Positions 43,601 to 46,600 of a DNA stretch of 64,000 nt are shown piece after piece; within the stretch, counting starts at the first letter, position 1; every line of letters begins with the position of its first letter. Position numbers: made by a program. The stretch comes from Escherichia coli (GTDB taxonomy: Bacteria; Pseudomonadota; Gammaproteobacteria; Enterobacterales; Enterobacteriaceae). The stretch lies in the NCBI RefSeq assembly GCF_044324785.1, contig NZ_CP172127.1; one strand, given 5' to 3'.

Positions 43601-46600
43601 GTAGCTACCGCTTTAACGCGGGTATCCATCGCCGCGTCGTTCAGCGCCATGCCGCCCCAGCCACAAATACCGAGCAGCCCGATACGGTTGCGATCTACCT
43701 CTTTTTGCAGCCCTAAGAAATCCACCGCCGCGCTGAAATCTTCAGTGTTGATATCCGGTGAGGCGACGTTTCGCGGATAGCCGCCACTTTCCCCGGTGTA
43801 AGAAGGATCGAACGCCAGGGTAACAAACCCTCGTTCCGCCAGCGTCTGCGCATACAAGCCGCTGGATTGCTCTTTCACCGCGCCAAATGGCCCACTGACC
43901 GCAATCGCCGCCAGCTTGCGATCGCCACGGTCTTTAGGCAGGTAAAGATCGCCCACTAAGGTGATGCCATATCGGTTCGGGAACGAGACTTTACGGTGAT
44001 CGACTTTCTGGCTCTCGGCGAACGTTTTATCCCATTTATCTGTCATGGACACAGGGGCATTAGGATTGGTTGAATCAGCATAACTCATTGTCGTGACTCC
44101 ACTTAATGATGCGAAAAGCAGCATGGTCGGCATCGCGGTTTTTAGCGTTCGGGTGAAGGCTTTCATAAAAATCCCCATAAAAAACAACAGAGAGATACAG
44201 GTTTCCGACGGACAACGCTGCGGTGCTTTACTTTGATGGGGTCATTATAGTGAGCAGAATTAGTGCTGATTAGGGGGCGATTAATGCTAAGATTAATACC
44301 ATATTGTTATAAATTAATGCGGAGATTGCCGGCATGAAGGAGGGATGTTTCAATGGCGAAAAGGGAGAACTATAACGAGCTGTACCTGTTTATGCAGGTG
44401 GTGCGAGAAGGCAGCTTTACCGCAGCGGCTCAGCGGCTGGGTCTTGCTCAGTCAGGAGTCAGCCGTTCTGTTCGCGAGCTTGAAGAAAGGCTGGGCGTCC
44501 AGCTGCTAGTGCGCACCACGCGTAAACTGTCGCTGACACAAGCAGGCGAGCAGCTCTACCAGAAGACGGCATCTGGATTTGAAATGTTAGATCTTGGGCT
44601 TGCCACGCTGGCGCACTATCGAGAGACGCCCTCCGGCACTGTGCGTATCAATGCCAGCCAGCACGCGATTGATAAATGCCTGCTGCCAAAGCTGGCGGTA
44701 TTTAAACAGCGATATCCTGATATCCGGCTTGAACTGATAAATGAGAGCCGGTTCGTCGATATCATCGAGGAAAGATTCGATGCAGGTGTCCGCCTGGGGC
44801 CTGAAGTCGGCCAGGGTATGGTCGCGGTACGCATCACGCCCGATATGGAGATGGCAATTGTGGGGACTCCGGAACATTTTCGTCGCTATGGTTTTCCGCA
44901 AACCCCGGCGGATTTAAAGGCGCATCCCTGTATCGCCTATCAGTTTGCCGACGGCAGCGTATACCAGTGGGAACTCAATCAGGATGATAAAAAAATCACT
45001 CATCGCCCTGAAGGGCAATGGGCCTTATCCGACAGCTATATGGAAGCAGAAGCAGCCCGGCTGGGCCTCGGATTGGCCTATGTTCCTGTTGAACTGGTCG
45101 CGGATGATTTAGAACACGGTAAGCTTATCAGGGTGTTGCAGCGTTACAGCCTGCGAATGGAGGGATTGTTTCTCTATTACCCTCATCGCAACGTCTCCCC
45201 CGCCCTGCGGATGGTCATTGATACATTGAAAATCTGAACGTTAACAACGACCGACTCTTCACTGTGCAAAATTGTGTCAGGTAGTCCCTCTGCGTTCAAT
45301 TCCAGGGTCTGTACACCCTGCTTTGAGCGAGAAAGAGGGGACTATCCAGCAATGGAGATCACCCAAAAGAAAAAACCACCAGGCTCCCTCGACAACCTTC
45401 ATCCGGGCATTTAGCCTCAATCAACATTTTTATATCTGTCAGGTTACTTCATTATGAAAACTGATCATCATCGTTGTTTTTGTTGCAATAGTAGAATACG
45501 CGTATTTATTCCTCCATCTCTATTAATAACGGCAATAAACTGTTCACTTCACTGATATTTAAAATATACATCCTTTTCAAGCTGTTCAGCGGCGTAAGAA
45601 AAAGTATTAATTATGAATTCGACGATTTAACCATTTCTGGCTGATTGGTAATCATCTGTGATTAATGCTGGTCTATTGATTACGCCAGCACCCTCTCTAG
45701 CTTATTCACCGCCGCCACATACTTCGCCGGATTTTTATCTTTCAGCACCGCCAGATTACGTTGCTTCCAGCGAATAGCCGGAAGATGCTGAATTTCAGGA
45801 TAGCGATACCGCGACCAGTCAGGGCTGTTTTGCTTAAAACTGAGCAAGAACTCGCGATCCAGATCCGTAAGATGTGACTTCAACGCCTGCGGCAGCAAAG
45901 TCGTTACTGACAGCAGCGATTCCAGCGACGTTTCCTGCTGAGTCATCCCCGAAAATTCCTGAGCATACAGCGTCGTGATCCGCTCTGTATCCCAGTTTGG
46001 GGCCAGCAACTCGGCAATGGGGCGGGGATGGCCTGCCAGATAACAAAGAAAACCGTCAAAGATCTCCCGCATCAGTCCCGGTTTCTCCAGCATATTCAGC
46101 ACATCAAACAGATCGCGCGGGTGCTGACGATCAAGCGCTGCGCAGATTTTACCGCCATAAAGATCCGCCAGCGAGACGACACTCATGGTGGTGAAGCCAT
46201 ACTCCATTTCCACACGTTCGCACACAGGCATTTCTGCCGGAGGCAACAACAGCCCGCGCCAGACCGGGCTAACCTCGATCTTAATCTTTGCATCAGCGGT
46301 ATTCACAATGATGCGCTTTTCATCCGCTTTATTTTCCTGCCGAATCGCGGTGATCCCCGGTCTGCCGTTCAGCGATGCAGTAATCCTCTTCAAAGCGTCG
46401 TTGATAGCCGCCAGATCAGTATCGCGATCCGCAAAGCTCTTATACGCCAGATCAATATCCACCGACAGACGGGGAAAATCCTGCACAAACAAATTGATTG
46501 CCGTGCCGCCTTTCAACGCGAAACAGGACTCCTTCGCCACATGCGGCAGAGCAGCCATCAACAGCTTAACCTGCCGGGCATAACTATCACGCAGATCCAT

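Follow-up and report, generated by a model that had tools for sequence, protein, structure and literature searches.

The nested stem-loop downstream of a LysR-family regulator gene (LysR1) in the window, as we call the whole 64-kb stretch of Escherichia coli DNA analysed here, is most probably the decayed remnant of a G-type cassette-junction site. At the same spot, other E. coli strains and other genera carry a simple palindrome, GTCYGCT-nn-GAGCGA-nn-AGCGGAC. Since the right arm of this palindrome has been lost from the window copy and the left arm is interrupted, we infer that this copy is a relic that no longer functions as a site. The hairpin is thus probably a fossil, neither a working RNA nor a live recombination site.

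The nested stem-loop and its flanks

The nested inverted repeats described in the initial annotation were confirmed. The outer arms, TAGTCCCTCT (45282-45291) and AGAGGGGACTA (45334-45344), share the core TAGTCCC/GGGACTA with seven perfect pairs (10/11 when extended with one bulge) and enclose a perfect inner repeat, CAGGGT (45303-45308) and ACCCTG (45315-45320), with a spacer of 6 nt. The hairpin starts 45 nt past the LysR1 stop codon, which ends at 45237, and is therefore correctly placed downstream of the LysR gene. Its proximity to a remnant locus also held, as a ykgR fragment begins at 45458. The island boundary, in contrast, is not immediately adjacent: synteny among E. coli strains is lost near 45690, some 345 nt beyond the right end of the hairpin.

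Folding of 45282-45346 was carried out for both strands, as had been proposed. The + strand RNA reached -28.9 kcal/mol, compared with -16.3 ± 3.0 kcal/mol for dinucleotide shuffles (n = 200), none of which folded as well (0/200, z = -4.15), and the - strand reached -26.1 kcal/mol (z = -4.38), so that by this shuffle test the segment folds better than chance. The fold is not unique: with GC content adjusted for, 65-nt stretches of equal or greater folding strength occur at ten loci within the 64-kb window. As a sequence, the hairpin is single-copy, with one occurrence in the window and one per carrying genome. The parts of the locus are as follows.

44353-45237, + strand: LysR1, LysR-family regulator gene (ORF list; RefSeq annotation of the homologous stretch in E. 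coli 042)
45238-45305, + strand: 3' flank of LysR1, including the 5' arm of the outer repeat at 45282-45291 (alignment)
45303-45320, no strand: inner inverted repeat CAGGGT/ACCCTG, made by a 9-nt insertion
45306-45335, + strand: broken G-type site (alignments; local match of model R1)
45335-45336, no strand: scar of an 18-nt deletion, AGCAGGCTTATCTGTACA (alignment of the window with the PRO_A and O157 forms)
45336-45453, + strand: 5' leader of LysR2, a cassette-borne second LysR gene (123/136 bases, 90%, identical to 3536-3669 of L223, the E. coli A36 locus)
45454-45469, + strand: LysR2 start codon with the codons next to it (ATG AAA A...), running into the ykgR fragment over a shared AAA-TGAT (alignment)
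45458-45574 (part of 45458-45690), + strand: 3' part of a partial second ykgR with downstream DNA (91% to K-12)
45574-45672, + strand: ykgO/ykgL-proximal-like stretch joined to the ykgR fragment (74%)
45680-47390, - strand: AbiEii toxin and AbiEi antitoxin genes (ORFs 45680-46600 and 46587-47390; annotation of the homologous E. coli 042 region)

LysR1 closes a conserved module of three genes (MFS transporter, alpha/beta hydrolase, LysR) with 75-94% nucleotide identity across Enterobacterales, and its 3' flank is conserved in Citrobacter, Kluyvera and Klebsiella spallanzanii. BLAST homology of the window ends within a few bases, at 45311 for the Citrobacter locus L007, at 45307 for L008 and at 45309 for the Kluyvera locus L072. 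From 45336 onwards the window instead matches the cassette of E. coli A36. The LysR2 leader is also 76% identical to a viral contig (L185), and the alignment to both L223 and L185 extends through ATGAAAA-TGAT-ATCA, with homology to K-12 ykgR starting at 45458. RefSeq labels the fragment in homologous loci 'small membrane protein YkgR, incomplete, missing N-terminus'. The AbiEii/AbiEi genes represent the first cargo of the strain-variable region on the right and are absent from the O157, F8111 and PRO_A forms.

Between the left and right homologies, thus exactly at the breakpoint, lie the remains of the site. Its GAGCGA loop is intact (45325-45330) and aligns with Citrobacter, Kluyvera and all E. 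coli forms. The arms fail the comparison with the family: the 9-nt insertion TACACCCTG (45312-45320) separates the two pieces of the left arm, GTCTG|CT (45307-45311 and 45321-45322), and the right arm, AGCAGGC, is missing. Read directly from the sequence, the insertion matches the reverse complement of the preceding CAGGGTCTG at seven of nine bases and therefore looks like an inverted duplication; in the alignments neither the short nor the long E. coli form has it, nor does any other genus. The 18-nt deletion took the right arm together with the first 11 nt of the downstream cassette, the start of which, TTATCTGTACAAGGG, directly follows an intact site in A36. The 3' arm of the outer repeat straddles the deletion scar and reaches into the LysR2 leader. 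The additional elaboration of the structure, initially noted, is due to two later indels.

Forms of the locus and the G-type/T-type family

The locus is carried by 913 of 5426 E. coli genomes and occurs in three indel forms, named window (~21 genomes, with PCN033 and 042 among the strains), short (~382) and long (~470-510, including O157:H7). A check of conservation and copy number, likewise suggested at the outset, confirmed one copy per genome and confined the nested structure to a rare E. coli lineage (~21/913 loci). In the remaining E. coli forms, folding does not exceed the shuffled level (z = -1.7, -1.6 and -0.3). A family site is found 40-90 nt past LysR1 in many genera. Model R1, which was built solely from family copies not adjoining LysR1, assigned high scores to the outgroup sites beside this gene, namely 36.5 bits in Citrobacter (L007), 32.7 in Kluyvera (L072), 28.7 in Lelliottia (L048), 25.7 in Klebsiella (L009) and 38.9 in the plasmid-type locus L031. 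The E. coli forms scored 14-18 bits, and the window, having lost the family signature, 7.5 bits (local match 45322-45333, E = 8.8). In the long form both arms are present but weakened (GTCTGCT/AGCAGGC), and since its match to R1 is weak (16 bits, E ~0.16), membership in the family rests mainly on its position, which corresponds to that of strong sites elsewhere. Overall, the window is closer to a short-form strain (99.0%) than to 042 (97.0%), which has the 9-nt insertion, and any order of the 9-nt and 18-nt indels is tentative. An inversion or block swap leading from the long to the window form could not be made to fit.

The intact G-type site is a 24-nt palindrome with arms of 7-9 bp (GTCYGCT ... 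AGCGGAC), and its partner, the T-type site, has the loop TGGCAC. Sites of both types bracket exchangeable cargo in P2-like prophages, lambdoid prophage hotspots, a plasmid and chromosomes. In Rac-type hotspots, two strains with common flanks differed in cargo exactly between the G-type and the T-type site. A synthetic left-plus-right junction query revealed a nearly empty hotspot in which 224 nt separate the two sites; no fully empty hotspot was found with this query. Plasmid CP042507 contains an array of sites between single genes. Among 125 G-type sites from 120 viral contigs, 69 had a T-type site 0.4-5.9 kb downstream, all on the same strand and none on the opposite one, and another 22 had a T-type site at most 45 nt upstream. 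T-like sites numbered 112 in real sequences versus 0 in shuffles, and T|G junctions showed a conserved spacer of ~18 nt. The sites occur before, after and between genes, whichever way transcription runs, with their polarity relative to the cassette always fixed.

The arms of the family are conserved as sequence, not only as pairs, with no covariation beyond shuffles, a pattern that fits recognition of the DNA by a protein. The G-type and T-type loops (GAGCGA and TGGCAC) are unlike each other, which is awkward for the overlap region of a classical tyrosine recombinase. Intact sites may nevertheless be the DNA targets of a putative cargo-swapping recombination activity. In E. coli A36 (L223), a G-type site of 26.1 bits in a lambdoid prophage hotspot is followed by the cassette start, an intact LysR gene and a polyketide cyclase gene. 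In the window the body of the LysR2 cassette is gone because the cassette is truncated at 45454-45469, and neither a regex scan nor R1 with filters off detected a T-type partner anywhere in the window. The far end of the LysR1 module has no family site, and the MFS gene there ends with an ordinary terminator.

Alternative readings and related systems

Its location and strong sense-strand fold, together with the family hairpins that follow LysR1 at 40-90 nt in many genera, might suggest that the hairpin has a role at the 3' end of the LysR1 transcript, either as a terminator or as a REP-like stem-loop that blocks 3' exonucleases and stabilises the mRNA. We consider this unlikely. The hairpin is followed by no U-tract (GGGGACUAUCCAGCAAUGG), reading TCCAGCAATGG on the + strand and CCTGACACAATTTTGC on the - strand, and the terminator scan gave no call, so that an intrinsic terminator was rejected. 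Moreover, the sister forms in E. coli do not fold beyond shuffles, family sites ignore the direction of transcription while keeping a fixed cassette polarity, and the arms are conserved in sequence as well as in pairing. A gene for a small regulatory RNA, such as the strain-specific sRNAs of EHEC islands, or a cis-acting regulatory RNA is highly improbable, even though the hairpin is intergenic, lies beside accessory DNA, folds strongly on both strands and belongs to a locus present in O157:H7. A search of 44000-47000 against Rfam, including the enterobacterial sRNA families, returned no match at E <= 10, a scan of 44900-45900 no promoter-like site; a terminator tail is lacking and the 9-nt and 18-nt indels disrupt the structure among strains. 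Esr41, the first candidate in view of the O157:H7 locus, is an RNA of ~70 nt with a poly(U) terminator, a feature not present here, and lies elsewhere, in O-island 43 (43/48) between z1181 and z1182; other EHEC sRNAs were rejected with it. Small ORFs across the hairpin (45272-45457 on the + strand, 45277-45420 on the - strand) were dismissed as well, since a 1-nt indel in O157 breaks both frames.

We also give very little credence to the possibility that a chance inverted-repeat pair in decaying intergenic DNA, never a site, accounts for the hairpin. It is true that the ten loci mentioned above fold equally well and that perfect inverted repeats of 7 nt are no rarity over ~100 nt (we estimate that ~0.3 are expected per 100-nt region). 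However, the high-scoring sites that other genera have at this position can be aligned, base for base, with the GAGCGA core and the left arm, and the flanks have separate, traceable origins and meet at the site. Judged by these outgroup alignments and the A36 cassette match, a chance pair appears already contradicted. A decayed cassette junction therefore remains our preferred reading. Of the identities proposed in the initial annotation, a recombination site came closest: the ancestral family is found at cassette and homology breakpoints, although the window copy itself is a relic with one arm lost and the other interrupted. 'REP-like' applies in spirit to the ancestral site, a short dispersed palindrome, but not to the nested structure, and REP/BIME sequences are not matched. 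A structured RNA found no support, given the empty Rfam search, the restriction of the nested fold to a rare lineage, the shuffle-like folding of the sister forms and the absence of covariation in the family.

The closest known elements are the inverted repeats flanking the Z/fun ('TO') region of P2-like coliphages, reportedly described by Nilsson, Karlsson and Haggard-Ljungquist in 2004 (Mol Biol Evol 21:1-13). In the Z/fun records AJ512677, AJ512681 and AJ512683, we found variable ORFs with the palindrome GTCTGCTTTGAGCGAAAA(G/A)C(G/A)GAC at one end and GTCCGCTCATGGCACAGAGCGGAC at the opposite end, and GenBank P2 Z-region records annotate the site-containing flanks as left and right inverted repeat. 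These are the same 24-nt palindromes, and the ancestral site after LysR1 fits a model built from such copies; the window copy differs in being chromosomal, outside a prophage, deprived of its right arm, interrupted in its left arm and without a T-type partner. A full-text literature search with the site sequences gave no match, and beyond the 2004 P2 observation the polarity rule, the ~18-nt T|G spacer and the plasmid and chromosomal arrays were not found in the literature searched.

Like the attC sites of integrons, G/T sites are short structured palindromes that separate cassettes of one or a few genes in arrays, with the same cassette in different backbones and a fixed cassette polarity. 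Unlike them, they lack RYYYAAC/GTTRRRY cores (both absent from 45282-45346 on reading the sequence, which excluded attC), have no adjacent intI-type integrase or attI, are located in prophage hotspots and plasmids, and comprise 24 nt with two alternating loop types, compared with attC hairpins of 60-140 nt. The pdif modules of Acinetobacter plasmids are bounded by XerC/XerD sites, dif being GGTGCGCATAA-TGTATA-TTATGTTAAAT. As in G/T arrays, short imperfect palindromes centred on 6 nt delimit their cargo, and a recombinase would have to be supplied in trans; the G/T sequence is unrelated to dif, however, and our data give no support for XerCD action on G/T sites. REP elements, with a GCCGGATGCGGCGTGAACGCCTTATCCGGCCTAC-like consensus and a GTAG head, are likewise short extragenic palindromes dispersed in enterobacterial genomes, often at gene 3' ends. 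They were rejected as an identity, since their consensus differs and the locus is present once in the window and at one place per genome; G/T copies, moreover, mark the edges of cargo in accessory DNA and are not scattered through core operons. Rho-independent terminators of phage 'morons' share the placement of a hairpin at the edge of an inserted gene block, but here there is no U-tract on either strand and orientation is independent of transcription. To our knowledge, the Tn3 inverted repeat, dif, shufflon sfx and nut boxB are all dissimilar. A tRNA fragment or att site was also considered: GTTCAATTCC resembles a T-loop but, read from the sequence, forms no T-arm, and ARAGORN found no tRNA or tmRNA genes in the window. 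A target-site duplication, suggested by TGTCAGGT at 45275 and 45437, was rejected because Citrobacter matches beyond the first copy.

Proposed history and significance

On the preferred reading, an ancestral G-type site would have lain at the junction between the 3' end of the MFS-hydrolase-LysR1 module and a cassette starting with the LysR2 leader. Within the E. coli lineage, the right arm would have been weakened by point changes and an insertion of 3 nt, and the 18-nt deletion would then have removed it along with the first 11 cassette nucleotides; its order relative to the 9-nt duplication is tentative. In the rare window lineage, the inverted duplication would have split the left arm and created the inner repeat. 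The outer repeat would have started from 7 nt in the LysR1 flank that happened to be complementary to the cassette leader, a match lengthened by the 18-nt deletion, and LysR2 was presumably truncated just past its first codons and became fused with the fragment of ykgR. By accident, the resulting stable hairpin could affect the 3' end of the LysR1 mRNA.

For the window itself the finding is of little importance: an inactive scar explains the odd intergenic stretch from the LysR gene to the ykgR fragment. As a marker the hairpin has its use: it shows that cassette insertion at a hairpin site had at least some part in assembling the accessory region next to paoD. The family is more interesting, since the same two palindromes bracket variable, often anti-phage, cargo in P2-like phages, lambdoid hotspots and a plasmid array. 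As a tentative proposal, which we hold with somewhat less than even confidence, the G/T palindromes may constitute a widespread cassette-exchange system of Enterobacterales, integron-like yet without an adjacent integrase, in which cassettes of 1-5 genes (defence genes, toxin-antitoxin pairs, regulators, transporters) would move among P2-like phages, lambdoid hotspots, plasmids and chromosomes by recombination at the 24-nt hairpin through a putative trans-acting enzyme, the window holding the fossil of one such insertion. Sites of such clear polarity offer a concrete handle on how cargo enters hotspots and on finding the responsible enzyme.

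The hairpin and its surroundings

The nested stem-loop lies in E. coli DNA with the gene order paoD, MFS transporter, alpha/beta hydrolase, LysR, hairpin, ykgR fragment, AbiEii/AbiEi.

Features around the hairpin (window positions)
41761-42954, minus strand, MFS transporter gene
43030-44187, minus strand, alpha/beta hydrolase gene
44353-45237, plus strand, LysR gene (LysR1)
45282-45291 and 45334-45344, arms TAGTCCCTCT and AGAGGGGACTA of the outer inverted repeat, read from the sequence
45303-45308 and 45315-45320, arms CAGGGT and ACCCTG of the perfect inner inverted repeat
45458-45574, ykgR fragment, 91% identity to the 3' part of K-12 ykgR
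Right of the ykgR fragment, minus strand, AbiEii/AbiEi genes

Both pairs of arms described in the initial annotation were found in place, and RNA folding of either strand beat shuffled sequence: the 65 nt reached -28.9 kcal/mol on the plus strand (z = -4.15, 0 of 200 shuffles equal or better) and -26.1 kcal/mol on the minus strand (z = -4.38). After GC adjustment, 10 loci of the 64-kb window fold at least equally well, so that the hairpin, present there in one copy, is not unique. The proposed structured RNA gained no support from Rfam, in which no family matched the hairpin even at E ≤ 10; ARAGORN detected no tRNA gene. Other 65-nt stretches folding equally well after GC adjustment were located at 27006-27105, 4276, 9201, 15156, 18276, 35681, 37066, 53706 and 59086, the first containing a perfect AT-rich palindrome (GGTCTGATTA-T-TAATCAGACC, 27016-27040) between ykgL and ykgO.

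The genuine ykgL-ykgO-ykgM-ykgR locus was found at 25602-27362 (96% to K-12). A partial second ykgR-related stretch at 45458-45690 comprises the 3' part of ykgR and ykgO/ykgL-proximal-like DNA, and lacks ykgM and ykgO. Synteny of E. coli strains with the window holds to ~45690, which sets the island boundary ~345 nt right of the hairpin; the hairpin adjoins the ykgR remnant, as proposed, but not the boundary itself. In PRO_A the boundary is identical though the island differs, with a LysR remnant, an unusually long tRNA-Ser feature (112 nt; L004 2413-2524) and a site-specific integrase right of the ykgR fragment. The MFS transporter gene has an ordinary intrinsic terminator on the minus strand (41692-41725; AGCGCCCA-ACCCATAG-TGGGCGCT, then TCTTTTAAA), in contrast to the hairpin with its missing U-tract. 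Directly 3' of paoD, a truncated short ORF (MPAPVVLILAAGRGKRFLASGGNTHKL*, 41561-41640), presumably the start of a mocA-like gene, has an N-terminus closely matching that of K-12 YagP (MPAPVVLILAAGRGECFLASGGNTHK...); by this likeness, K-12 yagP may be a deletion fusion across this region.

Indel forms, ancestral site and cassette leader

Of 5426 complete E. coli genomes, 913 carry the hairpin region, each a single time, and alignment A1 resolves it into three forms. Strains 042 and PCN033 belong to the ~21 genomes with the window form. The short form lacks 9 nt, CTGTACACC (~382 genomes), and the long form lacks the same 9 nt and carries 18 additional nt, AGCRGRCTTATCTGTACA (~470-510 genomes, among them O157:H7). 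Unusual stability was confined to the window form (z of -1.66 for the short form, -1.60 for the long form and -0.26 for O157). The nested structure is therefore an accident of one lineage and not a conserved feature.

The module of MFS, hydrolase and LysR genes is kept in many Enterobacterales, and in the closest relatives alignment of the LysR 3' flank runs as far as a clean palindrome of 24 nt in the corresponding position.

Palindromes 3' of LysR and the two types of site
Citrobacter, GTCTGCTGAGAGCGAGAAGCGGAC
Kluyvera, GTCCGCTGTGAGCGATGAGCGGAC
Klebsiella spallanzanii, GTCCGCTTTAGCGAGCAGCGGAC
G-type site, GTCYGCT-nn-GAGCGA-nn-AGCGGAC
T-type site, GTCCGCT-nn-TGGCAC-nn-AGCGGAC

Window homology to the flank of these relatives ends within the palindrome, at 45307-45311. 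The long form holds a simple hairpin, GTCTGCT-TT-GAGCGA-GAAAG-AGCAGGC, and O157 is changed on both arms (CTG...CAG to CCG...CGG). The clean palindrome at the equivalent place in relatives makes the long form the ancestral one. In the window, the 18-nt deletion has removed the right arm of the site and the 9-nt insertion splits the left arm. Reverse-complemented, the preceding CAGGGTCTG agrees with the inserted TACACCCTG at 7 of 9 bases (by our own estimate, at least 7 of 9 arise by chance at ~0.001). The insertion resembles a snap-back inverted duplication; such an origin would explain the perfect inner repeat.

To the right, window positions 45336-45470 share 90% of their bases (123/136) with a cassette that strain A36 carries in a lambdoid prophage hotspot, between hokD and a DUF977 gene. 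A G-type site (26.1 bits) and TTATCTGTACAAGGG... open the A36 cassette; its leader, intact LysR gene (LysR2) and polyketide cyclase gene come next, and a T-type site that has decayed closes it. A viral contig carries a 76% identical version of the leader behind a 36.5-bit site. By this match, the DNA right of the hairpin is the leader and first codons of the cassette-borne LysR2, which ends abruptly at ATG AAA A and is joined to the ykgR fragment over a few bases common to both. The 18 nt absent from the window correspond to the right arm of the site and the first 11 nt of the LysR2 cassette. The outer repeat pairs LysR1 flank with cassette leader, two segments of separate origin, whose complementarity the deletion lengthened. 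In the leader of the truncated LysR2 cassette, a scan called a weak terminator-like site (45369-45390, minus strand; GAGGGAGCCTGGTGGTTTTTTC then TTTTGGGTGA), ~290 nt downstream of the stop codon of AbiEii.

G-type and T-type sites around variable cargo

Loci of Enterobacter, Kluyvera and "Escherichia sp. ESNIH1" carry the same palindrome at unrelated places, and 1041 E. coli genomes hold it at 1225 positions in total, every one in unannotated DNA. A covariance model, R1, trained on 19 copies of which none adjoins the LysR gene, detects in ten genera sites that lie 40-90 nt past the stop codon of LysR (14-39 bits). The E. coli forms score 14-18 bits, the window just 7.5 bits as a local match.

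In a scan, at least 120 viral contigs proved to contain an exact G-type site. Among 125 sites analysed, 69 had a T-like site downstream on the same strand (421-5860 nt away, median 1706 nt) and none had one downstream on the opposite strand; T-like sites numbered 112 in real sequences versus 0 in shuffles. Another 22 had a T-type site ≤45 nt upstream, and at these junctions one cassette meets the next across a conserved ~18-nt spacer. Where cassettes abut, the order is T-type site, spacer (consensus roughly nnnnTnACTGAGCTGAAG), G-type site, a composite of ~66 nt with two hairpins, as in L118, L122, L123, L135, L149, L151, L156 and further viral loci, plasmid locus L100 (1764-1833) and L092 (1959-2031). 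One cargo start (ATTGCTAACAGC...) occurs behind at least 7 different left flanks.

Rac-type prophages of two strains share flanks and differ in everything between the G-type site (position 9001) and the T-type site: homology is lost at 9024 and returns at the T-type site. One carries SIR2, NTP pyrophosphatase, adenosine deaminase and TetR, the other MFS, GGCT, LysR, a second T-type site, DUF2254 and BCCT. In a near-empty hotspot, 224 nt separate the two sites. In Citrobacter, the G-type site past LysR opens a small two-ORF cassette that a T-type site closes. On the hokD/sok side, the G-type site of the lambdoid hotspot always has at its immediate left a conserved non-coding element of ~300 nt (L085 1217-1518, L087 1218-1518, L223 ~3200-3500; 92% identity between a Rac-type and a Qin-type prophage); Rfam found sok alone, adjacent to the element.

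In P2-like prophages, the sites enclose variable ORFs between tail-fibre-assembly and sheath genes. Flanks containing them are annotated "left/right inverted repeat" in GenBank AJ512677 (P2-EC31), AJ512681 (P2-EC48) and AJ512683 (P2-EC58); the source paper, Nilsson et al., is summarized in a review. The backbone around the cargo reads AATCTGACA, cargo, TGTCAGATT (L088, L095, L096), from which an empty P2 site would itself be a palindrome. The order G, G, T, T in P2-EC48 suggests one cassette nested in another. On plasmid CP042507, sites at 18, 1013, 1764, 1804, 2836 and 7934 form an array with single genes between them; no integron integrase was found in the 15 kb examined. This array (L100, CP042507.1 119275-134159; 18-7963) includes a TonB_C-domain gene, a GIY-YIG nuclease gene and an acetyltransferase-to-LysR block, and a PIN/MazE pair there is flanked by a T-type and a G-type site.

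Proposed recognition and function of the sites

In the R1 alignment 90% of cells pair, yet covariation does not exceed that of shuffles, and the arms are conserved as sequence. This pattern points to recognition of the DNA by a protein rather than to an RNA selected for pairing. The best-supported reading of the intact sites, drawn from their polarity, breakpoints and shared cargo, is a putative DNA recombination target that would serve cargo exchange among phages, plasmids and chromosomes. The simple overlap region of tyrosine recombinases is ill-suited to the differing loops of G-type and T-type sites. The window form might conceivably act on the LysR1 transcript at its 3' end, but it has no U-tract and sites of the family are independent of transcription direction.

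Among structured RNA, recombination site and REP-like element, as first offered, the recombination site comes nearest, although the window copy is a relic and probably not a working site: a cassette inserted at a G-type site left it as a scar, most likely inactive now. For the window itself the hairpin is ordinary. The family of G-type and T-type sites represents a partly described system that is worth following up.
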